The notes below the pieces were generated by a model. The model had not been told where the DNA came from, searched no databases, and worked only from the letters and a program-made list of their open reading frames with translations. 63,816 nt of DNA. Origin: a virus (lineage: Duplodnaviria; Caudoviricetes). Location of the stretch: the IMG/VR virus record IMGVR_UViG_3300032224_001028, positions 1-63,816 of that record; one strand, given 5' to 3'. Numbering within the stretch: the first letter of the stretch is position 1; the number at the start of each line of letters is the position of its first letter. The translations under genes were made by a program, and so were the position numbers. Of the stretch, positions 29,911-63,816 are shown one piece after another.

Positions 29911-30207
29911 ATGGATCTCCCTGCCGGAAACGGAAGAGGACGAATTTCTGCTCACGAAAAGAGAAGATTAGATCTAGCCCTGAGCCTCAGGGAACTTTCG
30001 ATTGCCTACGGATTAACCTATGCCCGTATCTGCAAACTCAGAGAATGCGCCGGCTTTCCGATTTTGGAAGGAGTAGTTGTGCCGTCTGATTTTGACCGTT
30101 GGCGAGAGGAGTACTACCGGCGTCCACGTACTTCCTTAGATCTCCCATCTCAAACCGATCATACATTCGGTGAACTATTTCAGAACTATGATTCACCAGA
30201 CGCATAG
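29911..30207 (+). CDS. Excisionase / AlpA-like HTH protein
   Basis: LSLRELSIAYGLTYARICKL...GFP...FDRW; convergent with and overlapping the integrase end. Confidence 0.55.
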   Translation: MDLPAGNGRGRISAHEKRRLDLALSLRELSIAYGLTYARICKLRECAGFPILEGVVVPSDFDRWREEYYRRPRTSLDLPSQTDHTFGELFQNYDSPDA

Positions 30208-31117: not shown

Positions 31118-31199
31118 GTAACAAGTGTCACACGCAAATCTAATCAAATCAAATCGATAAGTGGCGGATTAAGTCACTATCATACAAATCTTACCCTTG

Positions 31200-41364: not shown

Positions 41365-42095
41365 TCTTTTCCCCAAGGATCCGGTTTCTTTGCGAGGAAC
41401 GTTTCAAAGGGGTTATCCCTGAGCCTTATCCAGCGAGTCAGTTTCTTCCGGATTGGTATAAGAAACTTCCGCACCGGATAGGCAATCAGGGGTTAAGCAA
41501 AGGAACAGTAAAGAGGTGCGCCCCATTCCTAGATTCTCTTTCCGCCGGCTTCATCATTCCTTTGGCCGGTGACGTCGAACTTGTCTCAACCGAGAAGGGA
41601 TCGATTGTCGCAACGGATAGTTCTTTCCCGACGAAAATCATAGGGATGCACCAACCTTGGCAGTTAGGTGGCGAGGCTCATCCATCCCATCCGGCCCAAC
41701 CGCTTAAGTTCTCAAACTTCTGGCATATCCATGTTCCCGCCGGTTGGTCGGTATTGTTCGTGCCTCCCCTAAATAGGGCAGATCCTAGATTTGAGTGTTT
41801 TTCGGCAATCGTTGAATGCGACAAGTTTAAGAATCAGATTAACTTCCCGTTCGTCCTTAAGGATCCCAAGTTTTCCGGAATCATCGAGCAGGGAACACCG
41901 TTGGTTCAGGCTATTCCCTTTAAGCGGTCGGAGATGGGCGGGAGACATTCTTGCGGAACGCTGAGTAAGAAGGATCTGGCTGAGATCAATAAAACAAAAC
42001 TCAAGATGGATGCTCACGAATCGTATTACAGGGATCGGGTTTGGAAAAAGGACGGCAAGAGTCGATGCCCGTTTCATAGGATACTCGGCTTATGA
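41361..42095 (+). CDS. Conserved phage protein (DUF6065-like)
   Basis: PDWYKK, CAPFLD...GFIIP, NFPF and GTPLVQAIPFKR motifs. Confidence 0.6.
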   Translation: MIFSPRIRFLCEERFKGVIPEPYPASQFLPDWYKKLPHRIGNQGLSKGTVKRCAPFLDSLSAGFIIPLAGDVELVSTEKGSIVATDSSFPTKIIGMHQPWQLGGEAHPSHPAQPLKFSNFWHIHVPAGWSVLFVPPLNRADPRFECFSAIVECDKFKNQINFPFVLKDPKFSGIIEQGTPLVQAIPFKRSEMGGRHSCGTLSKKDLAEINKTKLKMDAHESYYRDRVWKKDGKSRCPFHRILGL

Positions 42096-43825
42096 GTCTG
42101 GATTCAGTAATCGAAACGAGTCCTGCTCTCTGGATGGCAACATCCGGAATCATTAAAAACAAGGCCGGCAATCTAGTTAGGCCCAAGCCGAATGATTTTC
42201 AGAAGTTCGTTTCGGAAGTGATTGAGTGGTGTATCGAAAATAACGAGCGTCCTAGAATAGTCATCCTTAAGCCTCGCCAAAAGGGATCCTCAACGGTTTC
42301 GTGCGCTTGCGTCTATACGTTCTTGCGTCGCTTCTCCGGAGCTAGGTGCGCCTTGATCGGGGATGAGTTGGATACGTCAAACAATCTTGCGGAAATCTTC
42401 AGCCGGTATGCAGACATGGACGATCACGCATGGGGCAACGAATGGCATAAGACTAAGTTGGCATTCTCAAACGATTCAAGTTGTCACAAGGAAACGGCAA
42501 ACGATCCACGGGCCGGCATGTCGTCCACCTTTCAAGTCGTCTTGGCGTCCGAGGTGGCACACTGGAAGAAGCGGGGAGAACGGAATGCCGAAAGCGTACT
42601 TCTTTCGATCCTGAATTGCGTACCCGATGAGCCGAAAACCCTAGTTATTGTTGAATCTACCCCGAACGGTGCGTCCGGTGCGTTTTATGAGAGGTGGCAA
42701 AAGGCAGTATGGTTTGAGGATTTCAAAAAAGGAAAGAAGGGGAACGGTTTCATCCGTGTCTTTTGGCCTTGGTATTCATTTGCGGATTCTGTCGAGACGT
42801 TGCCGGCTCAGAAAGAAGAGGAAATTAAGGAATCCCTCACGGATTCTGAGAGGAATCTGATGGGTTTGGGTGCGACGATACCGAATCTTGCATGGCGTCG
42901 CCGGATCGTGGGTGAGAAATGCGGTGGAGATGCCGAGCTTTTTAATCAGGAATACCCCACCGACGACGTTTCATGCTTCTTAACGTCTGGCCGGCCAAGG
43001 TTTGACCGGTCAGGGGTTGAAAGGATCGAGGTTCTTACCAGAAAGAAGCAGAGAACAGAGGGTGTTCTGGATCCTTCCGGTAATTCGGTTGTGTTCCGGC
43101 CTACCGGATCCGCCGAAGCGTGGCTATGGCTATGGGAAAAGCCTGAGTACGGTCGCCGGTATTTGATTGGTGTCGATACCATGACAGGGGCGAGTCAGGT
43201 AGCAGGATCCACAAGGGAGCCGGACTGTCATTCAGTGATAGTTTTGGCATCCGGAGCTTTCGTATTAGGCAAATGGATCCCGCCTTCCGTAGTTGGGAGG
43301 TTAAAACCACCTTGCAGGGTGGATATTGACGTTCTGGCCCTATTTGTGGACAGGCTTTCAAGGTTCTTTGGTGGTTGCATGGTCGTTCCAGAGGTAAATA
43401 ACTCCGGATTGGCCCTAATCGAACTACTTAAGGATGCTCAAACGCCGATTTACCAACGTGAAATCTTCAATTTACGTGAATCCAAGAAGGCGAAGGCACT
43501 TGGATGGCAAACAACCGAAAAGACAAGGACGCTAGCAATAGAAACACTAGCCACGGCAATCAGAGACGGGGATCTGGATGGTGGCGGAATCAATATCTAT
43601 TGCCCAAACATCCTTTCCGAACTTAAGACATTCGTAATTACGGACTCCGGCAAGGCCGAGGCGATGAGTGGGAATCACGACGACGATGTTTTGGCTTTAT
43701 CAATCGCAATAGCGACAATCGATGGCGCAACTCCCTATCTTGCACCGTCATCAACAAGAGGACTACCGAGAGATCTGCTCAACGCAGAGAAATCCATTCA
43801 GGCAAACCGCAGAAGCTATGCTTGA
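42092..43825 (+). CDS. terL: Terminase large subunit
   Basis: ILKPRQKGSST, LASEVA, VESTPNG, IGVD and HDDDV motifs. Confidence 0.92.
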   Translation: MSLDSVIETSPALWMATSGIIKNKAGNLVRPKPNDFQKFVSEVIEWCIENNERPRIVILKPRQKGSSTVSCACVYTFLRRFSGARCALIGDELDTSNNLAEIFSRYADMDDHAWGNEWHKTKLAFSNDSSCHKETANDPRAGMSSTFQVVLASEVAHWKKRGERNAESVLLSILNCVPDEPKTLVIVESTPNGASGAFYERWQKAVWFEDFKKGKKGNGFIRVFWPWYSFADSVETLPAQKEEEIKESLTDSERNLMGLGATIPNLAWRRRIVGEKCGGDAELFNQEYPTDDVSCFLTSGRPRFDRSGVERIEVLTRKKQRTEGVLDPSGNSVVFRPTGSAEAWLWLWEKPEYGRRYLIGVDTMTGASQVAGSTREPDCHSVIVLASGAFVLGKWIPPSVVGRLKPPCRVDIDVLALFVDRLSRFFGGCMVVPEVNNSGLALIELLKDAQTPIYQREIFNLRESKKAKALGWQTTEKTRTLAIETLATAIRDGDLDGGGINIYCPNILSELKTFVITDSGKAEAMSGNHDDDVLALSIAIATIDGATPYLAPSSTRGLPRDLLNAEKSIQANRRSYA

Positions 43826-48790: not shown

Positions 48791-51700
48791 ATGAGCCTAG
48801 AGAACATCTTCGATGACTCCAAGGGAGCTAGTCGCCTACCTGACTCTAAGAGCGTTGGGATCGACCCAGTTAAACTTGAGGATGTTAATTTTGACCCTAA
48901 AGAGGCGGATCCGGTGGAACCGACTGGTTCTGCCATGGCTTACGCTAGTCCGGTAAATCCAAACCCATCCGGAATCGATTTCAGGTTTATCAGGGATCCT
49001 TACGCCAGAAAGAACTTCAAGGGCGAGATCGATTACGCAAACAAAGCGGATCAATTCAATAGCAGGATTGAATCTGCTCAGGCCCAGCTAAAGGCTAGGG
49101 AAGAGAGAGCAAAGCAAGTAGCGGAGCTTAAGGCTCAAAAGCAACAGGAAGCAGATTTCAAGAAGGGAATGAATAGCGAAAAGGAAGGGCAATACAGGAA
49201 GGCAGGACAAAAGTTTTATACGGATGCTTTTGGTGACGTTCAGCCTCAAGTCAATGAAGAGAACAAGCCAATGTTTGAGCCTACTCCTTGGAAGATTCAA
49301 AAGGGGTTAGATGGGCGAAACGTAAAAACCCGTAGGAATGAGTTTGGGCAAATAGAGACTGAAGATCCTGACAAGGAAGCACCTATTGCAGAATCCAAGA
49401 TTAAACCAAACCAACTTTTCCGGAAGAACAAGCTATCGGAGGATCAATTTGTCGGAACAGTGGATGAAGGTCTTACCTCTGGTGACGAAACAATCCGAGG
49501 TGTGGCGGAACAGGCCAGAGAGAAGCAGAACGATAATCTTCTCAAAGAAACAAGGAACTCGTTTGTACGCCAAGAGCTTAAGGTTAAAGCAGATCTCGAC
49601 GATCATAAACTTCAGATGGCCCAGCTTGCCAAGGCGTCGCAGGAAAACGACATGCTTCCGGATTCGCCTGAGAAGCTAGCAAAGAAGGCTGAAATTGATA
49701 AGGCAATCGAGGACGGTGCGAAAAAAGCGCAAACAATTAGCGAATCACTGCTAGAGGCAAAAGCCCAGCGTGAGGATTTTGAGGCAAGCCAGAGTCTATC
49801 TGCATGGTCAAATGCTGAGAGGGCAAGACTAGATTTCTTGAGAAGCGACAGAGGCGCAGAATATCTAAAGCGAAAAGGAATTGATAGCCCTGAAAAGGAT
49901 CAGGTTTTAATTGATATTCGCAACAAGCTGAATGAGCAGGGCAGGAAAACCTTGGAGCAGTCTCAAAAAAAAACTGAAGATAGAACCCAGCTAGTCGGAA
50001 ACATGATGATTGACGGGGGGGCGCAACCCGAATCATCCAAAAAGAGTCCTGCTTTGCCGATGCAAGACACGGCCACGCTTAGAGAAGCCGATGACAAGTA
50101 CGAAAAACGGGTTAATGAAGCAAAAACGGTAGCAAACGAAATAGGCACAAAAGAAAATGAAAAAGTACGTGCATTATATTCGAATCTAAACGCTAGTGCC
50201 GATGCGGTTACTTCAATCGATAATCAACTCAAAGGATTGCAAGACCGGATGACGGAACTTAAGGCGATGACTGGCGGGAAGATGACTCCCGAAGTTGCCG
50301 GTCGAATCAATGCCTTGGCACAACAAGCAGAAAACCTTAACAAACAAAGGCAGGGGCATGTTGCCAAGTACGAGGAATCGAAGAGTATATTTGATAAGGA
50401 AGTAGGAACATTTGACGAGAAAGGCGGGTTCAAGTCGATTGGTACACGAATGGGGGCGATGTTTGACGCCCAACGCAGTCTTGAAATTGAAGCCAATAAA
50501 GCCGGACAAGAAAGAAACTCAGCCTACGAATCTTTACAGGCAAAGATCGAGCAACAGGCAAAGATTAAGCAGGATACTTTCAAGACAGTCGTAATGCCGA
50601 AGATCGATAGTGCGGTTCGGTCAATGGACGACAAGGCATTCGAGGCTTCAATGAAGGAAGCTACTGACCTTGGAATGGATAAGGAAGTTTCCGAATCGCT
50701 TCGGATGTACTACCAGCAAGCTAAGAAGAAGTATAACGGAAGCGATACAGATTTTTGGGATATGGATGTTTTCAACCTGATGCTTCGAAGTTCGCCGGCC
50801 ATGGGCATGCGTATGATTGGAGCTTTGGCAGATATTGTTGCTGGCGAGAACGATCCTAGAACTTGGTATGTCTTTGGTGAAACACACGAACAAAGGCAAG
50901 CAAGACTAACCTCGTTTGGCGGGGTTGGAGCAGAAACATTGTCACCGGACGTAAAGGCCGGATCCGTTTCAATGGGAATGGGTGACGGGGCAAGGGAAGT
51001 GAGTTTTGGGGAGCTTCTAAGAGAGGCAGAAAAAGCCAAGACAGGCAAATACGACAAGAATGCCGTTCCGGATCCATTTAATCAGGTAATGATTGGTGGA
51101 AGGACATACGATATTGGTACTACCAATTATTTTGTAAATAGCCTTCGCATGGCATCAGAGTATTTAAGAAAAGAAGCTAAAAATCTTGAAGAGGCTCTAC
51201 CGGTATCCGAACAGTTCCTATCAACGGACGTCGGGCAGTTTGCAAAAGGATTGGCAGAGCTTCCGGCTCAAATCGGGCCGGCATTTATTCCTTTTGTTGG
51301 CCCTGCGTTAATGGGAGGTACGGTTTCAGCAGGAATGTACGACGAATACATGCAGGATGCAGAACAAACTGCAATTAAGAACGGTACTGAGTTTGACAGG
51401 CTTTCGGCCCATCAGGGTGCATTAAACTATGTAGCAAAAGGCGCACCGGCTGAAATTGTCTCAAATCTATTAGAGATAAAACTTTTTAAGCTATTTAAGC
51501 CTTTGCTGAATAAAATTACCACAAAGGCACTTGCTGAAGCACTTGGCGGAACGGCAATTTCAGGACTTCTTGGTGGTGGCACTGAGGGATACCAGCAGTA
51601 CATGTTGAACCGCACCAAAAAGTATTTTGATAATATGCCAAATGTCGAACTCACAGATGATGTTTGGCAGAGCTTTAAGATAGGTGGAGCAGTGGAAATG

Positions 51701-54700
51701 TTTATTCCGGCTATGGTTGCCTTGGCTCAATCGGCTCAATCGCAAAACAAGAGATCTACTGATGTTCGTAAGATGATGGAGGATTTTGGGAAGGCTAAAG
51801 AAGAATCGTTGAATGCGCTTCCCGTTGGTCAAAGGGTTACAAATCCTGATCTTTCCGAATATACTCCTAAAGAGATAAGCAAACAGGAAACTAGATTAAA
51901 CTCCATTGATACACGGATTGCTTCTATCGAACTTGAGCTACCCAAGGCAAAGGGAGACAGGAAGCGGGATCTACTGAATGAGGGGGCGCAATTATACGCT
52001 CAAAGAAATCAGATTATCCCTACGGTTACTGTTGGTGCAGAGATGCAGAACCAGATTCAGGAAGAGCTTTCTAGGTTTCCGGCTCAGACCGTAACAGACG
52101 AAAAGGGCAAGGTTGTATCAGAAGCAAAGCTAGGCCCAGTACGGGCATTGGCTAAGTATGCCTCAGGAGCAGAGCTTTCGTTCGACGAAATGGCAGAAGA
52201 GCTTCCCGATGGATCTCCCGTATTCGGCAAAGACAAGAACGGGGCCGTCGTTGTGTCACAAAGGGCAATCGACCAGTATCGAAATACTGCCTCTACGATC
52301 TCTGCCCTAGCTCAAGGCAGGAGCGTACTGAACGCTCGGTCAATGCTTGAGGAAAAGCAGGATCAGCAAAAGGCAAAAACCACTTCAGTTGTCGCAAAAG
52401 ATCGCAAGGAGGAGTCCGGCAATCTGTTCAGGGTGCGGGTTACGGACACAGCAACGATGCAGGATCGTGAGGTAGATGTCCGTTCAGAATCTCCCGAAAG
52501 GGCTAGATTAACGATTGCGGGTAGTCCTAAGGATTACGGATTTGATGGTGGAATTAGGGTAGGGGAAGCAATCCCAGTGGGTGCGGGTGATAATAAACAG
52601 GGTGCAAATGTCGGCAAAGCGACAACAATGCCTCAAAATGCGTTCAGGAGGCCGATTACAGGCAAGGAAAGAACATCCTTGGTAAGATCCATTCTGGACG
52701 CCCCGCCTGAGCGTAGAAAGGCTTTACAGAAGATTTCTGAGTCCGTCGGTGGTCTTGTTGAAAACTACAAGAGCATGTTCGACTCGGTGGACTTCACCGC
52801 ACAGGACAATATCTCTGGTGGCGTACAGATCCGATTCTCACCTGACGGAAAGACAAGAAAGCTAGCGATTAGCCTTACCGGACTGCAAAGGGAGCTTCAA
52901 GGAGCCGAAAATCCCGATCAGGTACTTCTTGGGAAGTTTGTCGAGGAAGTTACTCATTCGGTTGGGGTTCAGGTTGTTTCGAGGGAGGAATCACAAAACA
53001 TTTCAAAAACGATGTCACCAAAACTCCGGAGAGCATTCGTTGATTCTTATTACGCATCAGAAAAATCCGCCGGCAAACAGGGCAAGATTAGCTCTGATAG
53101 CGCATTCTCTGGTGAGCTTACCGATTTAGAGCATTATGAAATAGGGCAAGAGTTCATACGAGCGATTGTCCAGAAGGATGAGCGTGTTTTGGGCTTCATG
53201 ACTGAAGAGGCTCAAACCAATCCGGAGTTTTTGCCCTACTTCATAAACGCACTTAAAAAGATCCTAGATGCGATAACTTCCGGTACGTACAAGATGGACG
53301 CTCCTTTAGCCAACGAAGCTAAAGAGCGAATCATCAGCATGATGGACAAGCTAGGAGCGTTAAACAAAATATCTGCGGATCGGGCGAAAATTGGCTATGG
53401 AAACAGTGCCAAGACAACCGACACTGCAACCGTTCAAGGGGTTCCCGCCACAGGATTACCTACTTCTGTTCCTCAGAATAGAAGTGGAGTTGGAACTGGA
53501 TCAGTTAGCCAAACGAATGAGGGAGGAACCACCGGAGCAAGTGGGTTGGCAGGATCTCCCGCTATTTCAACACAAGGACGTAGCTACAATGTAGCTACAC
53601 CAAAAAATACGATGAGCGTTCCCGTTCAAGGGAAACTCGTCGAATTGGGAGATCTAAAATCATCGGCTGGAACAAACCTTCAGCCACGGGATAGGACACG
53701 GGCGGGTAACAGGGAACAAGAGCTAAAAATTGCAAGGAATCCAAATCATGCGATGTGGGCTAGGCCGGCTTCAACTTCTGATACCGGTCTTACGATTGTA
53801 GGCAAGGATGGTCGTATTTATAGCGGTCACGGAAGGACAAACGCCAAGAACCTTGTCTATCAAATGGCCGAGACACCATCGGCAGATCAAGCATTAGGCC
53901 AAAAGAACGCTCAAGGGCTTAGGGATGAGATCAAGAACACGATGCGACAGATGGGCGAACCGGAATCGGAGATAGCAAAGGTCGATACAATGAAACGCCC
54001 CGACTACGTGGGTGTGTATCAGGGTGACGAGAATCCGAGCAAGATCCGGCAATTCGTCAGGGATTCAAACATCGAGGGGATGAGTGTAGCGGAACAAGCA
54101 TCATACGATGCGCTTGAGTTTATCGATAATCCCAAGCTGATCAGCAACCTACGGGCCGGATCGAATGGAGAGATACTTCTTAAGCGCAACGACAAGGTTT
54201 TATCAGATTTCTACAATGCAATCGGATCCCCTAGAGAGTTAAGGAAGAAAGATGGATCTTGGAGTAAGGCCATGGAAAGCAGGGTAATGGGCGCACTCAT
54301 GGCCCTTAACTTCGGTCAGAATAGCGATACTCTCATCACAACCCTTACGGAAGATGCTGAAAATCTCGGTCTTATTGGACTCCGTGCTGGACTTGTACAG
54401 GCTGGGCCTGATCTTGCGATTCTCGGTGATGGGGAATTGGACATTAAGCCAACCCTGACAAGGGCCGTGGAAGAGTTTGTTAAGTACAAAGAAAACGATG
54501 GGAAAATGGAGGACTTCTTAAGCCAAGGGAGACTCCAAGGGATTGAATCGGAAGCGTCACAAGAGACTGAGTTCATGATGAGAACCATCGCAGAGAATCC
54601 CACGGGCCGAGCGATTGGTGACTTCCTGAGAACCTATGCGGTTTCCGCAGTAGCCATGAAGCGAGAGCGTCAAGCCTACGGGGGTGGGATGTTCCCCGAA

Positions 54701-57700
54701 ACAGAAGTACCCCTCAATGTCATGGATGTTCTCAAAATGGCAACATCCATTGTATCAAAGGGTGATTCAACACAGACCCTTAGTAGTCCCGCAAGGAATA
54801 CCGCAGAGACGTTAGCCGGAAAACTTTCAGCATTTCTTGATCTTTCCAAGAATCCACAAAAGCAAAAAATCGCCCAATACGTTGCAAACTACCATAAAAA
54901 CGGTTTATACGGGCTAATCAATAAGATGCTTGAACCGGTTCCATCCGGAGCATCCCTGCCTCCTCAGGCATACCAATTTGAAGAGAGACTTGAGAAGATC
55001 CTTTCGGTTGGTGATCCGGCTATCGACATCACGCTTCCAGATGGCAACAAGGTAAAGCTGGACGGTGTAGGAGCAAGCAAGGTACTTGCGGGTTTCTTGG
55101 AAGGCGTAAGCAAGCAACAGGACAACTTTAGAGAACTGATTGGAAAGGTTACTGCCGGAAGAGACTGGGTTGCGCTAGTTGCCTCTCCCAAAAAGATGAA
55201 GAGGCTTGCCGAGAAAATAATTTTCGAAAAGAAGGGCATAGTTGCAGATGACGCAAAAGATATTCTTCGGGCCACGATTGCCGTCAATACATTGGATGAA
55301 ATGGATGAGGCGATTGCTGAAATCCAAAAATACGCAAGAGTAACGCAAGATAAGAAGAATCTTTATTTGGACACCGAGAACACTGGCTATGCCCACCGGT
55401 TAATTCTTATTCAATGGGACGGGTTAAATTGGGAGGCAGAAGTACAGATTAACTTACCCGAAATGTTGTTGGCTAAGGATATTGGACATCGTTTTTACGA
55501 AAAGATCCGTAGCCTTGAGGCTTTAGCTACAACTCTTCGAAATAATGAAGAAGTTCTGGCTATCGAACGTCAAATCGAAGAACTAAAAGAAAAGGTTAAT
55601 CAGGTTTGGCGAGGCGCACGGGACTTGATCACTAAACGCTTAAACGCATCCAAGGATCTTACCCGTGGAGCTTCAAACGTGGAGACAAGTGGAAATCGAG
55701 TAAGCGGAATATCATCGCAACGCCAAGCCCTTACTCCAAGTACTGCAACAGGGGTATCATCAACATCAAATAGTTCTGTTTTTGGATCCGAAATCAATTC
55801 TTCGAGATCCGGAGCCTTGGACGCTTCATCAGGTGTTGTTGGCATGACAACAATCAATAGCCAGAAATACGCAGTTCCGCAACCCGAAAGTATCGTTTAT
55901 GCAAATGTCGAGGATTTCAGGGGTACGGTGGATAGTTCTAGGTTGGCAAACGTTCCAGAAAACGAGGCTTCTCTTGGTACTATCTTCAATACAAAGGCAT
56001 CAGGATCATTCGTCGTTAAGCTAGATAAGCTGATTTCACCGGTAAATGAGCTTAACGACGAGGGATTTGTAGCAGGAAAGAAGGCGGATCCACGACAAAC
56101 AGCTATCAATCGCATGGTTTCAAACCTTGATGGAGAGACATTTACACCAAGAGAACCTATTGACCTTGCGGATAACGGTGATGGGACTTACACAATTATT
56201 GACGGAAATGCTACTGCCCAAGGACTTATGTTGGCAGGATGGCAAAATGCGGTTGGAGTTGTTAAGGAGTTTGCCCTTTCAGCCCCCCGTCGAAACACTC
56301 AAGACGCTAATCAATTAAGCCTATTTGACGAAACCGGAAGTGCTTCGGTGTTGTCAAACAGCAAACAAGGGGGTATTGAAAGTGGAGAACAATATGGACA
56401 ACCAAGAACAAGACAATCAACCGGAGAATCCGCCCAAACTCAGGACGGACTACGAGGGAGCGATGAGCTTTTTGGCGAATACGCCAACGGATCAACTCAA
56501 CCAACTAGCCAAGAATCCGGCACTCCTAGAGAAGTTTATTCTAGAGAGGTATCCGGAAACGGAATGGATTCAGTCGGACAACGAGGCGGAGTCGAGCCAA
56601 CAGGCGGAACTAGATCAGGAGACGGTGTACAAAGCGGAACGCAAGATGCTAATACTATCGACGGAGAATCCGGAAGAGTGGTCAGTAATCAAGACGGTGC
56701 TAGAGAAAATCTGCCCGTTCGATCTAAACCTACCGTAGAACGTCCTGCGGAGGGTTCGCCCGACAGAAATCACGAAATTGCCCCTGAGGACATACTTGCC
56801 CCAAGGGGTGACGTAACAAGACTCAAGACAAACATATCGGTAATTAAACTACTCAAGCAACTTGAGTCAGAGGACAGGAATGCAACGACTGAAGAGAAAA
56901 AGATCCTAGCTCAGTACGTAGGATGGGGTGGTTTGTCACAAGCCTTAGATGAAGATAAAGCAGAAAGAGCAAGTGACATGGATTTTCAGCGACGATACAT
57001 GGATGAGGAAACAATTAAGTCGATTGAAAACTGGAATAAGAAATACGGTAAGTATTACACTGAAGTAAAAGACCTTCTTTCTGAGGATGAGTTTAGATCT
57101 GCAAAGGCAAGTACAACTAATGCCCACTATACGTCGCCTCAGGTCATTAAATACATGTGGGATGCGGTCAGGAAACTGGGATTCGATGGCGGAACAGTAC
57201 TCGAACCCGCCGGTGGGGTTGGTCACTTCTTTGGGCTAATGCCGAAGGATATGGCCGATGCGTCCTACACAAAGGCCGTCGAGCTTGACTCTCTATCCGG
57301 AAGGATCATGCGGAAACTCTATCCCGAAACCGACGTTCAGATCACAGGATTTCAGGATGCAGAGATTCCTGATAATTCTATCGACCTTGCCATATCGAAC
57401 GTGCCTTTTGCCAATGTTGCAATATACGATGCCGGCCTTGAAGCGCAGGGTGCGCCCAAATTGTCACTTCATAACTATTTCTTTGCCAAGGCACTTGAGA
57501 AGGTTCGGCCCAGCGGGGTTATAGCCTTTATCACAACAAGCAATACTCTGGACGCCAACGTTGCTCAGAGGAAATGGATTGCAGACCACGGGGAACTAAT
57601 TGGCGCAGTAAGACTTCCAAACACTGCATTCAGCGAAAATGCAAATACAGAGGTCACCACGGACATTATTTTCATGAGAAAGCCGGACGGCAAGATGCCT

Positions 57701-60700
57701 AGCTTTAGTCCGGAGTCATTCAAAAGCACAAAAGAAGTGCCACTAGAGAACGGTGGAACAGTTAAGATCAATGAGTACTTCGCAAGCAATCCCGACATGA
57801 TTCTTGGCCGACTTGCCAACGACGGATCTATGTACGGGGGCAAGGAAGAGATGACGGTACATCCTTTTCAGGATGGCCGAACATTAGAGAGCGTTCTTAG
57901 TCAGTCCCTAGAGAAGTTGTCCGGAGACGTAATGGGCCAGAGCAAACCGGTCAATATGGACGCAGTAAGAAGCGAAGAAGCGATGAGGGGCAAGAAGGTT
58001 GGGACTCTGGCGATGCTTGAGGACGGGAAACTTGGCATAGCCGGAGTAGAAAACTCGGATGAAGAAATCCTTAGTCCAAAAAATCGGCCTATTGCCATGG
58101 GATTCATGCAAGTCAGGGACGCCCTGAATGAATTGTATCGGATGGAAATGGATCCGGAATCTCAGGACGCCGAGATTGAAGATCAACGGAAGGCACTAAA
58201 TGTTGCCTATGACAACTTTGTGGCACGGAATGGATCATTCCATGCAAATAGTAAGCTATTAGACTTTGATCCTGACTATTACCGGATCATAGGAGCCGAA
58301 AATGAGGTAAAGTCTGATAGCAAGGCCGAGAACGTTAAGAAGTTCCTGACTAGGAAAAAGAACTACACAAAGGGTGATATTTTCACAAAGCGGATCCTCA
58401 CCCCAAGGCAGGAGCCTACTTCTGCTTCATCCGTTGAGGATGCTATGGGCATATCCCTTGGATGGAAAGGCACTCTCGACACCGACTACATCGCCGGATT
58501 GGTTGGCAAGTCAAAAGAGGAGGTCGAGAAAGACATTCTTGGCAAGGGTATTGGGTTCAGGGATCCATCTACCGGTCTTGTGTCCACAAAGGAAGAATAC
58601 CTGAGTGGCAACGTAAGAAAGAAACTTAAGATAGCCGAGGAAAAGGCCAAAAAAGACAACAGTTACGAGGCAAACATTGAAGCATTAAAGAAAGTGCAAC
58701 CGGTGGATGTGCCATTCTCCGACATATCAATGAACCTTGGGGCGAACTGGATCCCGACGGACATTATTTCTGACTTTGGTAGAAGCATACTCAAGACACG
58801 GGTTACAGTAACGTACAGCAAGGGGGTCGGGGATGTTTCTTCAGATAGGTACACGGTTACTTACGGATCCGACGGCAAGGGCGCAAGATCAATGGCCGAT
58901 CTTCCCTCAGAAGCCACAAGCATCTACGGCACGGATAGAATGTCAGGAGTTCGACTGCTTGAGATGGCACTTAACATGCAAACGCCGATGGTATTTGACA
59001 CAATCGACGAAAAGAAGGTTTTGAATGCCGGTGAAACCGAAAAGGCAAAACTTGCCATGGAGAAGATCAAGGAATCTTTCGCCCAATACGCATCATCCAA
59101 GCCTGAAGTTTCTGAAGAACTCGCAAAACAGTACAACGAGAAGCGGAACTCCCATGCGTTACGTCAGTACGATGGTCAATTCCTCACATTCCCGTGGCTT
59201 GCTAAGGGATACGACTTATATCCAGACAAAAAGAACGTGGTTTGGAGGGCTATTCAGGACGGCAAAATGCTTATTGCTCACGGGGTTGGAGGAGGAAAGA
59301 CGGTCATCGGCACTGCTTTGACCATGGAACTTCGTCGCCTTGGACTAGCCAAGAAGCCGATGATCGTTGTCCATAACGCTACTTTGGAACAGTTTGCCGG
59401 AACGATTGGAAGAATGGCCCCGACTTCCCGTGTCCTTGTTGCCCGTAAAAAAGACTTCGAAAAGAGCAAGCGAAAGGAGTTTGTGGCGAAAATAGCCTCA
59501 GGAGACTGGGATGCGGTCGTGATGGCCCACTCAACATTTAACCAGATCAAAGACGATCCGGAATACGTAAAAAAGATTACCTATGAGCTTATAGATGAGC
59601 TTCGGGATGCAATCACTCAAACCATGAGTGAAAGCAACGAGGTGAGTCGTTACGGCAGGATCTCCAAAAAGAAAGATCCATCCGTAAAGGAGAAGGAGAA
59701 GCAGATCAAGAGGCTCGAAGAAAGACTCAAGCGAGTACAAGAGCGCAAGGTCGATGATGTCCTTACGTTCCAAGAACTAGGGGTGGACGCTATTATTCTG
59801 GACGAGGCGCATATCTACAAAAAGATGCCTTTCGTAACAAAGCTAAAGAATATCGCCGGCATCGATAATTCGCCCACCGAATCAGGAACAAGCTTATTAA
59901 CCAAAGCACGATTTATTCAGGAAAAGAACAAGGGCCGGAACATCTTCACGATGACTGGCACACCGGTAACAAATACCCTTGGTGAAGTTTGGAATCAGGT
60001 TCGCCTTATCGATCCCGAACTATTGGCCGAGTTTGGTTCATCTAGCTTTGATTCGTTTGTTTCTACATTTGCAGAGGTAGAGAGAAGTGCAGAGCTAAGG
60101 GCCAACGGAAAATATAAGAGCATCCAACGTCTATCGAAATTGGCTAACTTGCCTGAGTGGAACAAGATGTTCCGGACTAGAGCAGACGTCAAGATGGGCG
60201 GGGATATGGTCGTAAAGAACCGGCCTGAAATCAAAGATGGAAAACCTGACCTTATTGCGGTCGAGGCAACTCCTCAGGTAATCGAATACAAAAAGATTAT
60301 CGATAGAATCATCGATGATTTTGACAGCATGGATGGACGAGAAAAGAAGGAAAACAGTCATATTCCGCTAGTTACTTACAATGCTTGCAAACTTGCATCA
60401 ATCGACATGCGTTTGGTGGATGACAAGGCAAAGGATGAGGCGGGAAGTAAATCAAACACCATGATTGAAAAGGTGTTCGAACTTTACAAGAGAACGAATG
60501 ATTACAACGGAACCCAAGTAATCTTCTCTGATCGTTACCGGCCCATGAAAACGGAATCCTTGTCATTCAATGGATTGGATTCGGGCGTTGAAACTGATGA
60601 CAGTGAAGATTCGGGAATGGATCTTATTTCTGGTGCAAAAGAGGAAGAAAAAGAAGAGCGTGAAGCGGAATCCATGGGCGGATTCAACCTTTATACAGAC

Positions 60701-63700
60701 ATCAAAGAGAAGCTGATCAAAAAGGGAGTAAAGCCTGAAGAGATTGCAATTATTAACGATTTCAAGACCGATCAAGCAAAAGAGCAGTTATTCGAGAGGG
60801 TGAACAACGGAACTGTTCGTATCATTATCGGATCGACACAAAAGCTGGGAACTGGCGTGAATATGCAAGGCCGGATGATTGCCGGACATAACTTGGACGT
60901 GCCTTGGACTCCGGCAGAGATGGAGCAACGGGACGGGCGGGTAATCCGTCAGGGCAACATTCACTCAGAGCTTGGCATACCGGTCGAGATCTACCGGTAC
61001 GGTATGAAGGATACGTTGGATTCGGCCCTTTGGCAGAAGCTAGAGTTTAAGGAAAGATTCATTAAACAGGCATTGAGTGGCAAGATTAGCGGTCGTGTCA
61101 TTGAGGATGATTCGGGGCTACTCAGCCTAGCAGAGCAAAAGGCGATCTTGTCCGGCCCGATGGGGCTTGAGAAGTTTAACACCGAGACAAAGATCCGTGA
61201 GCTAGAAAATCAGGAACGGGCATGGGTGCAATCATCGTTCGATGCGATTCAGGCCGGCAAGACTGCCGAGCTTCAGGTTAAGGCATACGAAAACAGGCTT
61301 AACCAGACAAGGGAGTTCCTAAGCGAAGTATCAAACTGGACGCCTGAGCCTACGGCCATGATTGAAGGCGTAGCATTAACGAAAGAAAACGACATCCGTG
61401 ACGCTATTCAGGAGTACTTTGATAAGCGCAGAGATCAGGCCATCCAAACCGGAAAATCGTTCCGAGCATCAGTAGAAGCAAAGAAGCCTTTGGGAGAATT
61501 TACATACAATGGAACAAAAATAACTCTTTCGCCAGCTTCAGTAGATGAAGTGCTAGGTGAACCGGATCCCAAGAAAGCCATTAAGGTAGAAACCGGCGTC
61601 ATGGTCAATGGCCGTGACTTGGGTGCAAAGGTAAAGAGCGCAGGATACGTCGTGAGCGCATTAAGGGATCTCGTTAAGAACCTTAAGAGTTATGAGCAAC
61701 AGTTTATCAACGGCATGGGATCGGCCCAAGAAACGGCAGATTCAGCGACAATCGCATCCTCCAAGGCATTCCCAAGGAAGGAAGAGCTAGATGGTCTTAG
61801 AGCTAAATACGCTAAGATCATGGAGGATTACACGGACAAGGGTAAGACAAATAGGGTTGAAGCAGAGCAAATGCAGTTAAACGCTCCCGCCCTTACGCCA
61901 AGCAAGGCAAGCCTACTCTCCAAAGATGCTATGAACCTGATCGAGCCTATTGCTAGGTCGTTCGTTTCCCCGCAGACATCGCTAGACGAGGCTATTCAGA
62001 TTGGCCGGATCGCACTCATCAAAGCAGTGCAGGGATTCGATCCGAATGCCGGTGATTTTGATAAATACGCAAAGGCAGTAGTTCGGAACGCACTTAAAAA
62101 GAACTACTCAAGGAACGAGGCGTCGGCCCGTGAGATCTCCATGAGATCCATGAACATTGACTCTCCGGTGTCCGGAGAAAGCACGGCCCCGCTGGGTAGC
62201 ATCATTCCGGACGAAAACCAGAGCTTGCCGTCGCAGTCGGCGATTACAAACGACGCACAGAGGCTCATGCAAACCATGATTGACGGACTACCGGTGCGCC
62301 CACGGACGGTTGTATCGGCATACATGAACGGGGAAGGGGTTGCCCAAATCGCAGAAAAGATGGGCATTTCCCGCCAATACGCTTTGACGATGCTCAACAA
62401 TGCTCTCTCAGTACTCCGGAAAAGGTTGGCAAAGGTCGGGATCGAGGAAACCAAGGATCTCATCTCCGGATCCACACGGGAGATTATATCCAGACTGAAC
62501 GCACCGTTAAGAGCAATCACAACGGAAGAGGAGAAGGCTCAGGCCGAGTATCTCACCGAATTGGCCCAAAGCAGAGGATTGACGTTGGATCAGTTTGCCA
62601 CGGAAAGAATCGATGAGTTCCTAGATAGCGCAAAGGCATGGAGACAGGCGCATCCTATTCAAGATGATGACATGCAAGTACTTGGGGCTTCAAATAGGCG
62701 CATCAAATCAAAGTTCCTCACGCCAGTCAGCAAGAGATATGAGGCAGAACAGTTTGAACTAGCATTCGTTAAATCAATGGTAGAGGTGGCAGACAAAGAC
62801 CAAGCCGGAAAGCAGGACATGTCAGAAGAAGGCAAAGCATATCTAATCGATGTCCTTGCCGAGTATCTAGCGTCGAAAACGTCTTTGGATGAAGTGGCAA
62901 AGGGGCAGATCCAGACAGATAAAAGCTTAGATAAATACCCCGATCTCAAGTGGTCTTTTCAGAAGTTTGGTAAAATTGCAGATAAAAACTCTGCGTTTTA
63001 TGATCTCAGTCAGGAGAACAACAAGAAAATATGGGAAGCATATAAACTGCTTGAACAGAACGAAAATAACTCAGTAATCGCATTCGAAAACGACCAAGGC
63101 GACAAACTTCTAGTATCTAAAGCAATAATCAATCCTGAAGATAATGTCGGAATAAATGACTACAACTATAAAGAAGTTCCACTCACAGATTTCAGAAACA
63201 CCGCATACCGACTTACAAAATACACAAGCAGTTTTGGAATACTCGGTGCAATTACAAACCCAACGACAGTAATTACCCCCGAAGGAGACAGCATTACACC
63301 GGCTTGGCATTCATTCTTTCCAAATAAAACTCAGGCAGTGATGAGTGCGATGGGCATAAAGAACCCGCAAAGGGAGACGTACGACGATTACAAGCCTATG
63401 GAATCCTTATTCTCTCCCAGTCGGAATCCAGACATGGATGCAGTTGAGGAGTACATGGACTATCTAGGTAAAGAGTTGCCTGAAACGAATGAGCTAATCA
63501 ACAAGGCAGATAACGAACGTAACAGATTCAAAATCACAGGAAACCCAACGCTAGCCAACCCCGCTAAGGGCATGGGGCGCAACCTAGTGAATGCAGTGGA
63601 TGAGGCTCGAAAAGACATACTGCAACGCCGGCCAGACGTTATCGTGATGGCCGAGGCCCGTGCGCTACTCGCAAATGACGAGGAAGGCGTAAAGCGCATG

Positions 63701-63816
63701 TTGCTCGAAAGGGCAGTGGATCCATCCCAAGCCGGACTGCCTACCGACGTAGAGGTGCGATCCGCCAAGTTGCTTGTCGAAAAGCTGGCACGTAGGGCCA
63801 TGACTTCGGGCGACGA
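48791..63816 (+). CDS. Giant polyvalent protein (~5,919 aa including 1..2857), N-terminal and central part
   Basis: ATG at 48791; the ORF track reports no ORF in this frame, so no stop occurs before the window end; hand translation gives several coherent domains; frame continues into 5..2857. Confidence 0.9.
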   Translation, partial: MSLENIFDDSKGASRLPDSKSVGIDPVKLEDVNFDPKEADPVEPTGSAMAYASPVNPNPSGIDFRFIRDPYARKNFKGEIDYANKADQFNSRIESAQAQLKAREERAKQVAELKAQKQQEADFKKGMNSEKEGQYRKAGQKFYTDAFGDVQPQVNEENKPMFEPTPWKIQKGLDGRNVKTRRNEFGQIETEDPDKEAPIAESKIKPNQLFRKNKLSEDQFVGTVDEGLTSGDETIRGVAEQAREKQNDNLLKETRNSFVRQELKVKADLDDHKLQMAQLAKASQENDMLPDSPEKLAKKAEIDKAIEDGAKKAQTISESLLEAKAQREDFEASQSLSAWSNAERARLDFLRSDRGAEYLKRKGIDSPEKDQVLIDIRNKLNEQGRKTLEQSQKKTEDRTQLVGNMMIDGGAQPESSKKSPALPMQDTATLREADDKYEKRVNEAKTVANEIGTKENEKVRALYSNLNASADAVTSIDNQLKGLQDRMTELKAMTGGKMTPEVAGRINALAQQAENLNKQRQGHVAKYEESKSIFDKEVGTFDEKGGFKSIGTRMGAMFDAQRSLEIEANKAGQERNSAYESLQAKIEQQAKIKQDTFKTVVMPKIDSAVRSMDDKAFEASMKEATDLGMDKEVSESLRMYYQQAKKKYNGSDTDFWDMDVFNLMLRSSPAMGMRMIGALADIVAGENDPRTWYVFGETHEQRQARLTSFGGVGAETLSPDVKAGSVSMGMGDGAREVSFGELLREAEKAKTGKYDKNAVPDPFNQVMIGGRTYDIGTTNYFVNSLRMASEYLRKEAKNLEEALPVSEQFLSTDVGQFAKGLAELPAQIGPAFIPFVGPALMGGTVSAGMYDEYMQDAEQTAIKNGTEFDRLSAHQGALNYVAKGAPAEIVSNLLEIKLFKLFKPLLNKITTKALAEALGGTAISGLLGGGTEGYQQYMLNRTKKYFDNMPNVELTDDVWQSFKIGGAVEMFIPAMVALAQSAQSQNKRSTDVRKMMEDFGKAKEESLNALPVGQRVTNPDLSEYTPKEISKQETRLNSIDTRIASIELELPKAKGDRKRDLLNEGAQLYAQRNQIIPTVTVGAEMQNQIQEELSRFPAQTVTDEKGKVVSEAKLGPVRALAKYASGAELSFDEMAEELPDGSPVFGKDKNGAVVVSQRAIDQYRNTASTISALAQGRSVLNARSMLEEKQDQQKAKTTSVVAKDRKEESGNLFRVRVTDTATMQDREVDVRSESPERARLTIAGSPKDYGFDGGIRVGEAIPVGAGDNKQGANVGKATTMPQNAFRRPITGKERTSLVRSILDAPPERRKALQKISESVGGLVENYKSMFDSVDFTAQDNISGGVQIRFSPDGKTRKLAISLTGLQRELQGAENPDQVLLGKFVEEVTHSVGVQVVSREESQNISKTMSPKLRRAFVDSYYASEKSAGKQGKISSDSAFSGELTDLEHYEIGQEFIRAIVQKDERVLGFMTEEAQTNPEFLPYFINALKKILDAITSGTYKMDAPLANEAKERIISMMDKLGALNKISADRAKIGYGNSAKTTDTATVQGVPATGLPTSVPQNRSGVGTGSVSQTNEGGTTGASGLAGSPAISTQGRSYNVATPKNTMSVPVQGKLVELGDLKSSAGTNLQPRDRTRAGNREQELKIARNPNHAMWARPASTSDTGLTIVGKDGRIYSGHGRTNAKNLVYQMAETPSADQALGQKNAQGLRDEIKNTMRQMGEPESEIAKVDTMKRPDYVGVYQGDENPSKIRQFVRDSNIEGMSVAEQASYDALEFIDNPKLISNLRAGSNGEILLKRNDKVLSDFYNAIGSPRELRKKDGSWSKAMESRVMGALMALNFGQNSDTLITTLTEDAENLGLIGLRAGLVQAGPDLAILGDGELDIKPTLTRAVEEFVKYKENDGKMEDFLSQGRLQGIESEASQETEFMMRTIAENPTGRAIGDFLRTYAVSAVAMKRERQAYGGGMFPETEVPLNVMDVLKMATSIVSKGDSTQTLSSPARNTAETLAGKLSAFLDLSKNPQKQKIAQYVANYHKNGLYGLINKMLEPVPSGASLPPQAYQFEERLEKILSVGDPAIDITLPDGNKVKLDGVGASKVLAGFLEGVSKQQDNFRELIGKVTAGRDWVALVASPKKMKRLAEKIIFEKKGIVADDAKDILRATIAVNTLDEMDEAIAEIQKYARVTQDKKNLYLDTENTGYAHRLILIQWDGLNWEAEVQINLPEMLLAKDIGHRFYEKIRSLEALATTLRNNEEVLAIERQIEELKEKVNQVWRGARDLITKRLNASKDLTRGASNVETSGNRVSGISSQRQALTPSTATGVSSTSNSSVFGSEINSSRSGALDASSGVVGMTTINSQKYAVPQPESIVYANVEDFRGTVDSSRLANVPENEASLGTIFNTKASGSFVVKLDKLISPVNELNDEGFVAGKKADPRQTAINRMVSNLDGETFTPREPIDLADNGDGTYTIIDGNATAQGLMLAGWQNAVGVVKEFALSAPRRNTQDANQLSLFDETGSASVLSNSKQGGIESGEQYGQPRTRQSTGESAQTQDGLRGSDELFGEYANGSTQPTSQESGTPREVYSREVSGNGMDSVGQRGGVEPTGGTRSGDGVQSGTQDANTIDGESGRVVSNQDGARENLPVRSKPTVERPAEGSPDRNHEIAPEDILAPRGDVTRLKTNISVIKLLKQLESEDRNATTEEKKILAQYVGWGGLSQALDEDKAERASDMDFQRRYMDEETIKSIENWNKKYGKYYTEVKDLLSEDEFRSAKASTTNAHYTSPQVIKYMWDAVRKLGFDGGTVLEPAGGVGHFFGLMPKDMADASYTKAVELDSLSGRIMRKLYPETDVQITGFQDAEIPDNSIDLAISNVPFANVAIYDAGLEAQGAPKLSLHNYFFAKALEKVRPSGVIAFITTSNTLDANVAQRKWIADHGELIGAVRLPNTAFSENANTEVTTDIIFMRKPDGKMPSFSPESFKSTKEVPLENGGTVKINEYFASNPDMILGRLANDGSMYGGKEEMTVHPFQDGRTLESVLSQSLEKLSGDVMGQSKPVNMDAVRSEEAMRGKKVGTLAMLEDGKLGIAGVENSDEEILSPKNRPIAMGFMQVRDALNELYRMEMDPESQDAEIEDQRKALNVAYDNFVARNGSFHANSKLLDFDPDYYRIIGAENEVKSDSKAENVKKFLTRKKNYTKGDIFTKRILTPRQEPTSASSVEDAMGISLGWKGTLDTDYIAGLVGKSKEEVEKDILGKGIGFRDPSTGLVSTKEEYLSGNVRKKLKIAEEKAKKDNSYEANIEALKKVQPVDVPFSDISMNLGANWIPTDIISDFGRSILKTRVTVTYSKGVGDVSSDRYTVTYGSDGKGARSMADLPSEATSIYGTDRMSGVRLLEMALNMQTPMVFDTIDEKKVLNAGETEKAKLAMEKIKESFAQYASSKPEVSEELAKQYNEKRNSHALRQYDGQFLTFPWLAKGYDLYPDKKNVVWRAIQDGKMLIAHGVGGGKTVIGTALTMELRRLGLAKKPMIVVHNATLEQFAGTIGRMAPTSRVLVARKKDFEKSKRKEFVAKIASGDWDAVVMAHSTFNQIKDDPEYVKKITYELIDELRDAITQTMSESNEVSRYGRISKKKDPSVKEKEKQIKRLEERLKRVQERKVDDVLTFQELGVDAIILDEAHIYKKMPFVTKLKNIAGIDNSPTESGTSLLTKARFIQEKNKGRNIFTMTGTPVTNTLGEVWNQVRLIDPELLAEFGSSSFDSFVSTFAEVERSAELRANGKYKSIQRLSKLANLPEWNKMFRTRADVKMGGDMVVKNRPEIKDGKPDLIAVEATPQVIEYKKIIDRIIDDFDSMDGREKKENSHIPLVTYNACKLASIDMRLVDDKAKDEAGSKSNTMIEKVFELYKRTNDYNGTQVIFSDRYRPMKTESLSFNGLDSGVETDDSEDSGMDLISGAKEEEKEEREAESMGGFNLYTDIKEKLIKKGVKPEEIAIINDFKTDQAKEQLFERVNNGTVRIIIGSTQKLGTGVNMQGRMIAGHNLDVPWTPAEMEQRDGRVIRQGNIHSELGIPVEIYRYGMKDTLDSALWQKLEFKERFIKQALSGKISGRVIEDDSGLLSLAEQKAILSGPMGLEKFNTETKIRELENQERAWVQSSFDAIQAGKTAELQVKAYENRLNQTREFLSEVSNWTPEPTAMIEGVALTKENDIRDAIQEYFDKRRDQAIQTGKSFRASVEAKKPLGEFTYNGTKITLSPASVDEVLGEPDPKKAIKVETGVMVNGRDLGAKVKSAGYVVSALRDLVKNLKSYEQQFINGMGSAQETADSATIASSKAFPRKEELDGLRAKYAKIMEDYTDKGKTNRVEAEQMQLNAPALTPSKASLLSKDAMNLIEPIARSFVSPQTSLDEAIQIGRIALIKAVQGFDPNAGDFDKYAKAVVRNALKKNYSRNEASAREISMRSMNIDSPVSGESTAPLGSIIPDENQSLPSQSAITNDAQRLMQTMIDGLPVRPRTVVSAYMNGEGVAQIAEKMGISRQYALTMLNNALSVLRKRLAKVGIEETKDLISGSTREIISRLNAPLRAITTEEEKAQAEYLTELAQSRGLTLDQFATERIDEFLDSAKAWRQAHPIQDDDMQVLGASNRRIKSKFLTPVSKRYEAEQFELAFVKSMVEVADKDQAGKQDMSEEGKAYLIDVLAEYLASKTSLDEVAKGQIQTDKSLDKYPDLKWSFQKFGKIADKNSAFYDLSQENNKKIWEAYKLLEQNENNSVIAFENDQGDKLLVSKAIINPEDNVGINDYNYKEVPLTDFRNTAYRLTKYTSSFGILGAITNPTTVITPEGDSITPAWHSFFPNKTQAVMSAMGIKNPQRETYDDYKPMESLFSPSRNPDMDAVEEYMDYLGKELPETNELINKADNERNRFKITGNPTLANPAKGMGRNLVNAVDEARKDILQRRPDVIVMAEARALLANDEEGVKRMLLERAVDPSQAGLPTDVEVRSAKLLVEKLARRAMTSGD
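52700..53370 (+). other. Domain: zincin-like metallopeptidase variant
   Basis: FVEEVTHSV (EExxH) at ~52940 and a downstream GQEFIRAIVQ helix. Confidence 0.45.
53406..53594 (+). CDS. Candidate overprinted gene (+1 frame) in giant-ORF linker
   Basis: CTGCGG-N16-CTATGGAAACA-GTG; host frame is a T/G/S linker here. Confidence 0.45.
   Translation: MPRQPTLQPFKGFPPQDYLLLFLRIEVELELDQLAKRMREEPPEQVGWQDLPLFQHKDVATM
53580..54700 (+). other. Domain: DdrB-like ParB
   Basis: LQPRDRTR...Q...IA...TSDTG..IVGKDG..YSGHGRT. Confidence 0.75.
55100..55620 (+). other. Domain: RelA/SpoT nucleotidyltransferase (toxSAS-like)
   Basis: KKMKRLAEK, KDILRATI, TGYAH, EVQI and AKDIGHRFYEKIR motifs. Confidence 0.8.
55600..55845 (-). 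CDS. Candidate antisense-overprinted gene (81 aa), possible antitoxin
   Basis: MPTTPDEASKAPDLEELISDPKTELFDVDDTPVAV...; TTGCGG-N17-TATTGA upstream; sense frame is an S/T-rich linker. Confidence 0.6.
   Translation of the reverse strand: MPTTPDEASKAPDLEELISDPKTELFDVDDTPVAVLGVRAWRCDDIPLTRFPLVSTFEAPRVRSLDAFKRLVIKSRAPRQT
55900..56275 (+). other. Domain: ParB/sulfiredoxin-like
   Basis: PREPIDLADNGDGTYTIIDGNAT. Confidence 0.65.
56382..56738 (+). CDS. Candidate overprinted gene (+1 frame; GTG 56382 or ATG 56394)
   Basis: TGTTGTCA-N17-TATTGAA promoter motif; GGAG RBS; helical acidic product. Confidence 0.65.
   Translation: MENNMDNQEQDNQPENPPKLRTDYEGAMSFLANTPTDQLNQLAKNPALLEKFILERYPETEWIQSDNEAESSQQAELDQETVYKAERKMLILSTENPEEWSVIKTVLEKICPFDLNLP
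56760..57930 (+). other. Domain: DarB-like N6-adenine DNA methyltransferase
   Basis: YVGWGG, NAHYT, VLEPAGGVG (57203), VELD and ISNVPF (57398) motifs. Confidence 0.9.
58000..61250 (+). other. Domain: DarB-like SNF2/SF2 helicase
   Basis: AHGVGGGKT (~59280), DEAH (59801), TGTPVTN, GTGVNMQ and EQRDGRVIRQGN motifs. Confidence 0.9.
61889..62460 (+). other. Domain: sigma-70-family factor (regions 2 and 4)
   Basis: LIEPIARSF..SLDEAIQIGRIALIKAVQGFDP..FDKYA...VRNAL; LPVRPRTVV...GEGVAQIAEKMGISRQY....NNALSVLRKRL. Confidence 0.85.
63694..63816. repeat. Terminal direct repeat (assembly overlap), copy 2
   Basis: Identical to 1-123. Confidence 0.97.

Follow-up and report, generated by a model that had tools for sequence, protein, structure and literature searches.

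A candidate small-protein gene nested in the linker before the DarB-like module of a giant phage gene

Complete genes lying within other genes are known from Rz1 inside Rz of phage lambda, from genes B, K and E of phiX174 and from comS inside srfA. To our knowledge, overlapping genes on one strand that are both long and conserved across phyla are seldom seen in bacteria and phages, and they are filtered out by annotation pipelines. Here, we describe a candidate of this kind in a tailed phage, IMG/VR record IMGVR_UViG_3300032224_001028, whose entire 63,816-nucleotide stretch is referred to below as the window. On the + strand of the window, positions 56394..56738 lie in the +1 frame relative to a giant open reading frame (ORF). 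We consider it highly probable that these bases encode two proteins, namely a disordered linker of the giant protein in frame 0 and, in the +1 frame, a separate acidic protein of 114 residues (pI 4.2; five predicted helices), which we refer to as the nested gene and the nested protein.

The giant gene has its own point of comparison in the Dar system of phage P1 (DarB with Ulx, DdrA, DdrB, DarA, and Hdf), with which it shares a DarB-like module and a ddrB-ParB domain. P1, however, encodes its accessory proteins in separate genes, and its darB begins at the methylase module. In the window, the nested gene directly precedes the start of that module, within the coding sequence of the giant protein. 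Two families of nested genes occupy this place in the phages and plasmids considered here, and neither was found in the first 30 kb of phage P1.

Selection, homologues and predicted fold of the nested protein

The nested gene is complete in the +1 frame, on the same strand, within 48791-63814, the portion of the giant ORF contained in the window. Its frame is closed upstream by a TAA (56316..56318, + strand) and ends in a TAG (56736-56738, + strand), leaving an open +1 stretch of 56319-56738. Four close relatives with 90-97% nucleotide identity are available (L002-L005; three from IMG/VR and one metagenome contig), and all four keep the nested ORF with an identical Shine-Dalgarno (SD)-ATG as well as a giant frame free of stops. 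The first-pass annotation, which proposed the nested gene, had held that a frame broken in close relatives would speak against it; in these four relatives the frame is intact.

To describe selection on both frames, variable sites among the window and L002-L005 were counted by codon position of the giant gene. The flanks of the nested ORF show the pattern of a single coding frame, with 21/13/135, 31/15/114, 28/15/77, and 19/13/115 variable sites at giant positions 1/2/3, as against 11/6/6 inside the nested ORF, where the commonest variable position is the third position of the nested frame. Among 386 sliding intervals of 115 codons each, the minimum of giant third-position variation falls exactly on the ORF (6 variable sites versus a median of 28; Fisher p=1.3e-8), and all intervals with at least as many variable sites at position 1 as at position 3 overlap it. 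Twelve of the 23 changes within the ORF are silent in the nested frame and four are silent in the giant frame, compared with 191 of 256 changes silent for the giant protein in the flanks of L003 (p=8e-8 versus the ORF pattern). Similarly, amino-acid differences in L002-L005 affect 2/9/10/10 of the 114 nested residues, as against 2/16/13/14 of the 115 residues of the giant frame. Purifying selection is thus stronger in the nested frame than in the giant frame.

The nested protein belongs to a small family. A word-indexed search recovered six full-length homologues of 114-118 residues with 75-92% identity; the proteins P0004-P0008 are 75-85% identical. At a more distant locus, L009, whose downstream module is 60% identical to that of the window, the +1 ORF in the corresponding position is recognized by the family profile (E=6.5e-12), and its product has 30% identity to the window's protein over 94 residues. 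When the window and L009 are aligned over the same nucleotides, the nested frame scores 125 (z=17.9 versus shuffles) and the giant frame 79 (z=4.7), with the giant-frame score arising mostly from one motif, GLR.SDELFG. In addition, a full HMMER scan of 1.84 billion representatives returned eight matches at E<=0.001, one of which is the window's own cluster. Five others are proteins of 116-128 residues with their own Met just before a DY..M[ST]FLA motif, and another is a 197-residue protein, P0010; all six of these further clusters share the conserved columns of the family. The eighth match, a 334-residue repeat protein (P0015), was set aside as unrelated. Thirteen family members share the invariant columns M1, Y20, M24, F26, L27, D62, E66, A81, E82, P93, and K100.

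AlphaFold2 with the 13-sequence alignment gave five concordant models (pLDDT 71.7-77.4) in which 45 residues reach at least 90, and predicted helices at residues 20-29, 32-39, 42-52, 64-91, and 93-106; an earlier run with seven sequences had produced one good model of five. Taken together, selection in the nested frame, a family whose members reach down to about 30% identity, and a helical model predicted with confidence lend good support to the earlier proposal of a real nested gene. The accompanying description of an acidic helical ORF of 114-118 residues likewise holds, with 114 residues from ATG to stop, 118 from an upstream GTG to stop, a pI of 4.2, and a five-helix model.

Beyond this family, searches returned little. 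A tblastn search of the nested protein against phage and plasmid collections gave no match. The model found nothing at E<=0.001 in a Foldseek comparison with PDB and BFVD, and the best hit of a wide fold search with VIA-align (Z 5.2) is generic for helical models; the best ESM Atlas candidate (0.78), in an XPC-binding cluster, lies below the level that counts. A degenerate-pattern scan of genome contigs yielded no family member among the at least 120 stretches listed, the best match among them (L096) being a 41-residue ORF that fits the pattern only. Scans with the family alignment gave nothing in IMG/VR beyond the four contigs already known, and one contig in the JGI metagenome collection.

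Occupants of the same slot in distant relatives

The module that follows the nested gene retrieved 58 IMG/VR loci, of which 55 are distant (34-60% identity). At the distant loci an open +1 stretch of about 90-165 codons immediately precedes the module, and its products read like real proteins. Pfam TnpV (PF14198) was listed for 10 of the 18 such ORFs submitted, three of them scoring above the 27-bit cut-off (L013, 31.2 bits; L026, 28.6 bits; L046, 27.6 bits). A TnpV-like profile built from 24 Met-trimmed sequences matches 45 of the 55 distant loci, a count that includes the 24 seeds; an earlier untrimmed profile matched 42. In all 45 loci the matching frame is +1 and the giant frame is open across the ORF, and in 36 of them an ATG lies near the start of the TnpV-like domain.

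The same arrangement occurs in cultured phages and in plasmids. Erwinia phage PEp14, Klebsiella phage LASTA, and Pseudomonas phage Itty13 carry a +1 TnpV-like ORF (MNLN.W...HWKEH.P...), which in PEp14 and LASTA is located within a single coding sequence (CDS) annotated as 'DarB-like antirestriction' and has a +1 stop two codons upstream of its ATG. One plasmid each of Clostridium perfringens and Virgibacillus encodes a canonical TnpV in frame +1 of a CDS named 'helicase-related' or 'SNF2-related', again just before the methylase module. In 21 phage records the match lies under a large, variously named CDS ('hypothetical protein' in Itty13) and is separately annotated in none; the public records inspected annotate the giant CDS alone over the nested gene. 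In Itty13 (L193, NC_070969.1 3367-9461) the RefSeq CDSs over the DarB-like module run on the strand opposite to the tblastn match and the open giant frame, which is probably a strand mis-call in a genome of 67% G+C.

A different configuration is found in Sinorhizobium phage PBC5 (L194, AF448724.1), where the 2,185-residue orf33 ends, in frame, with the TnpV-like domain; there, the open methylase frame downstream reaches back 359 codons ahead of the module, overlapping the TnpV-like domain. Similarly, phrog_938, labelled 'endolysin', has the TnpV-like domain at profile positions 2084-2180 of 2185. Four relatives have +1 ORFs of 110-147 codons in the slot (L010, 2681-3013; L011, 2585-3007; L016, 2585-3028; L038, 2525-2902). 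These match neither the window's family nor the TnpV-like profile and may be further diverged occupants of the slot.

The window's nested gene has the same slot and frame as the nested TnpV-like genes, and similarity between the two protein families was not detected. The nested proteins of the window and of L009 have no Pfam TnpV row at E<=1 (cut-off 27 bits), nor does any other part of the window's record, and hhalign comparisons of the window's family with the nested TnpV-like set gave probabilities of 1.3% (A3 against A4) and 0.4% (A6 against A4). L010 and L011 were tried as a bridge between the families, and profile comparison failed to link them. By eye, both families end in a helix with P-E-x-W-x-x-[IV]-[KR], a likeness without statistical support. 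Judged from these comparisons, the window's protein is of a different family from TnpV, or of one that has diverged beyond recognition, and the occurrence of a second family in a recurring two-frame slot appears to be the new point of this locus.

In a quick maximum-likelihood IQ-TREE phylogeny of the module, the window clade and L009 form one branch (support 98) with L010 and L011 as successive sisters, and TnpV-bearing lineages fall on both sides of the midpoint root, which serves for drawing only. Because the window clade sits among TnpV-bearing lineages, replacement in place or divergence past recognition would account for its different occupant, and, read most simply, the ancestral occupant was TnpV-like and in the window's lineage was replaced, or changed beyond recognition.

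Probable translation of the nested protein and rival explanations

On sequence grounds, the nested gene appears to have its own translation start signal, GGAG-N6-ATG, with a Shine-Dalgarno-like GGAG at 56384..56387 on the + strand, six bases before the ATG at 56394. A GGAG 5-10 nt upstream accompanies three of the 141 off-frame ATGs in the giant ORF, and 17 of the 37 gene starts chosen in the window have an SD-like appearance. An in-frame GTG (56382..56384, + strand) is an alternative start for a product of 118 residues; it is indistinguishable from the ATG by sequence, and gene callers place the starts of the homologues at the ATG. We think it likely that ribosomes loading internally on the mRNA of the giant gene would start the small protein at the conserved GGAG-N6-ATG. 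In that event the small protein would arise beside the nascent giant protein as translation of the downstream methylase-helicase module begins.

The first-pass annotation had further proposed that the nested gene has a promoter of its own, and is expressed independently of the late polyprotein. The motifs that it read are all present, with TGTTGTCA at 56349-56356, a spacer of 17 bases, TATTGAA at 56374-56380, then the GTG at 56382, the GGAG, and the ATG at 56394. The promoter itself does not stand up: the element TGTTGTCA-N17-TATTGAA (56349..56380, + strand) is below the consensus threshold, and TATTGA agrees with TATAAT at three of six positions. A sigma-70 consensus scan of 55800-57300 found 0 sites, compared with a mean of 2.0 in shuffles. 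Moreover, the proposed promoter and the proposed SD are incompatible, since a transcript starting about 7 nt past the hexamer would begin at or after the GGAG. We do not count the element as a working part, and the sigma-70 scan lends no support to independent expression from it.

Several points weigh against the reading that two proteins are made. The most conserved motif of the nested protein, AMSFLAN, overlaps the conserved giant-frame SDELFG, so part of the nested conservation is possibly driven by the giant frame. RNA-library contigs (from two libraries, with two DNA runs as well) span the ORF of a 90-95% relative, free of indels; these contigs may derive from DNA, and are no proof of a separate message or, strictly, of transcription. 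Synonymous-codon resampling of the linker leaves the +1 frame open in 13% of 20,000 trials, which explains the length of the ORF in part. As to function, Pfam, PHROG, and NCBIfam contain no family for the nested protein. Finally, P0010 and P0016 (197 and 217 residues) carry the helical domain fused in frame to an upstream module, so independent initiation is not the sole natural route to this domain.

These fusions bear most directly on the possibility that the nested gene has no start of its own, and that a +1 frameshift during translation of the upstream giant gene yields the upstream modules joined to the helical domain, beside the full-length protein. P0010 and P0016, which come from two sources, join a ParB-like upstream end and a QLNLF/LFG linker in frame to the helical domain, and in PBC5 orf33 and phrog_938 the TnpV-like counterpart is likewise in frame at the C-terminus of the upstream protein. 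Candidate shift sites exist in the form of a run of five G 20 nt before the window's nested ATG and a run of seven A 17 nt before that of L009 (2076-2099; giant frame KKRK). The frame junction of P0010 lies near the place equivalent to the seven-A run of L009. Against such a shift, the five-G run is broken in L004, the ATG and GGAG are identical in all four close relatives, five distant family members start at their own Met, and the +1 stop two codons before the nested ATG in PEp14 and LASTA leaves no room for a shift site. For the window ORF we found neither a conserved slippery site nor the want of an own start that would mark a programmed frameshift. In view of the interrupted GGGGG run of L004 and the invariant SD-ATG, we favor internal initiation and consider the frameshift improbable.

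A second alternative is that no +1 protein is made, the ORF being a by-product of a linker poor in V, L, I, M, and F codons. At 139 codons from stop to stop, the nested open stretch is the longest of 234 +1-frame stretches in the giant ORF (mean 20.4; next 107), and the nested ORF is the sole + strand alternative-frame ORF of at least 100 residues within it. With 234 open stretches to draw from, one of 139 codons is no surprise, and its length is not significant by itself because the composition of the linker leaves the +1 frame open in so many resamplings, compared with 0.2% on average in the same resampling elsewhere in the giant gene (up to 60 random segments). A +1 stop needs a T at the second position of a giant codon, and codons for V, L, I, M, and F are scarce here (15 of 115 residues versus 25% in the whole giant protein), hence the few stops. 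A by-product frame, however, would not lower silent-site variation in the giant gene (6 versus a median of 28), would not leave 12 of 23 changes silent in its own frame, would not remain recognizably homologous at about 30% protein identity as the giant frame decays, and would not fold at a pLDDT of at least 90 over 45 residues. We regard this alternative as very improbable. In the reverse test, in which the nested protein was kept and its codons were resampled, the giant frame stayed open in 0 of 20,000 trials (mean of 9.9 stops), and the giant frame is itself kept open by selection. Collectively, the conservation in relatives and the reverse resampling indicate that both frames are maintained.

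Least probable of all is conservation of a nucleic-acid element (an RNA structure or DNA site) with no second protein, which would fit the conservation of all three codon positions over about 420 bases but not the three-base periodicity of the residual variation in the nested frame (11/6/6), nor the sharing of amino-acid rather than nucleotide conservation among distant family members.

The giant gene, possible roles and comparison with known systems

The window is a complete virus record with direct terminal repeats of 123 bases, and the sequencing runs that contain it are labelled as freshwater or lake metagenomes. PHROG matches to a portal (2899-4998), a major head protein (10407-11903), a terminase (42092-43822), and an exonuclease, together with an integrase match on the minus strand (30038-31144), identify it by sequence as a temperate tailed phage. 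The giant frame (48791..63814, + strand; 5,008 codons) is still open where the window ends and crosses the 123-bp terminal repeat in frame into 2-2857, amounting to 17,760 bases and, by arithmetic, about 5,919 residues. The wrapped-around tail of the giant protein (5-2854) matches the PHROG 'internal virion protein', which is the sole pointer to a possible packaging of the giant protein in the virion.

Pfam scans place, all on the + strand, a ddrB-ParB domain of the giant protein at about 53606-53923, a ResIII domain at about 59255-59965, and a Helicase_C domain at about 60725-60955. The start of the DarB-like N6-adenine methylase-helicase module (56741..58540, + strand) lies directly 3' of the nested gene; its conserved columns include G.G.F and N.PF (N220, P222, F223), of which N.PF and G.G are invariant, and the methylase part has a weak Eco57I match. 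The 400 residues that follow the nested ORF match 120 phage records, many of them labelled DarB-like antirestriction. From these motifs and matches, the giant protein reads as a polyvalent DarB-like protein with N6-adenine methylase motifs followed by an SF2 helicase. After the helicase, at about 61937-62374 (+ strand), the Pfam results include sigma-70 region 2 (33.4 bits) and region 4 (22.3 bits, under its cut-off); a sigma-like domain in a giant virion protein would be unusual, if injected. Sub-threshold Pfam matches in 54700-55500 to a HigB-like RelE toxin (16.7 bits) and RelA_SpoT (13.9 bits) correspond to residues about 422-676 of giant-frame 53441-56317, between the ddrB-ParB domain and the linker.

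The linker of the giant protein (56327..56740, + strand) occupies the same DNA as the nested gene. As the first-pass annotation had read it, this is a low-complexity segment; it is rich in G, S, T, Q, and R (G20, S14, T11, Q10, and R10 of 115 residues over the nested ORF). Just before it, the giant frame reads QLSLF at 56312-56326, with QLDLF in the same place in L009 and QLNLF in P0010. QLSLF fits QL[SD]LF, which we take to be the consensus of the beta-sliding-clamp binding motif. Of 62 loci, four show a pattern of the QL[SD]LF type in the 300 residues that precede the module, and each of these four has a nested gene of the window's family; downstream of the module there are 0 in 80,745 residues.

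With no family match and no structural relative, the position of the nested gene is the only basis for proposing what its product does. Tentatively, the small protein may act as an accessory factor of the methylase-helicase module, for example by holding or adapting the DNA enzyme so that it stays quiet or can be packaged. This suggestion comes from the slot directly before the module, which holds a small helical nested TnpV-like gene in 45 of 55 distant relatives as well as in plasmids. The first-pass annotation had suggested an inhibitor or chaperone of the adjacent ParB or MTase-helicase; such a role may be considered on the same positional ground, the slot shared with the TnpV-like genes. 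When the nested protein was modelled in complex with residues 1-600 of the methylase module, the prediction scored 0.00, which carries no weight either way. Rival roles are a DNA-mimic anti-restriction protein, conceivable given the acidic pI of 4.2, and, by analogy, DNA handling like the Xis-type function postulated for TnpV. According to PMC3158075, a resemblance to lambda Xis had led to the postulate that TnpV helps excision.

At this locus it is the slot that is conserved, rather than one protein family, and conservation of the slot across families argues that the function of the small protein would be tied to the anti-restriction methylase-helicase. We also entertain, as a speculation that we think less likely than not, that a two-frame cassette is conserved in the spacer before every DarB-like module, with a small helical partner of either family that the module needs and that always comes from the +1 frame of its own linker, and that giant genes arose by 'fusion through overprinting'. 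An ancestral stand-alone small gene between two large genes would then have been read through in another frame, welding its neighbors into one polyprotein around a small gene that stayed functional, and PBC5 and P0010, where the upstream protein runs in frame into the small domain, would show the process under way. The case bears on the evolutionary assembly of giant polyvalent proteins and on the overlaying of a disordered linker on the coding sequence of a folded protein, and it offers an experimental handle, since either frame can be silenced by single-base changes that leave the other protein unaltered. A literature search, with supplements and subscription journals outside its reach, found no paper describing the nested arrangement, and a search of the main text of PMC5512222 gave 0 hits for TnpV, overlapping or frameshift.

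Among known systems, the stand-alone TnpV of Tn4451-type transposons (PF14198) is likewise a small helical protein of a mobile element, but it is encoded by a separate gene beside a serine recombinase rather than a nested one, and has no sequence similarity to the window's protein. The nested TnpV-like genes agree with the window's gene in strand, +1 frame, slot, small helical product, own Met, and the low-complexity linker in the giant frame; they differ in that the window's protein has neither a Pfam TnpV match nor profile-profile similarity to them. Compared with Rz1 in Rz, genes B, K and E of phiX174, and comS in srfA, the window's nested product has no known spanin, lysis or competence role, its host gene spans about 17.8 kb, and the overlapped part is a disordered spacer instead of a folded domain. 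What the window's gene would share with these classical cases is the arrangement itself, a complete gene on the same strand and in another frame, with its own internal start.

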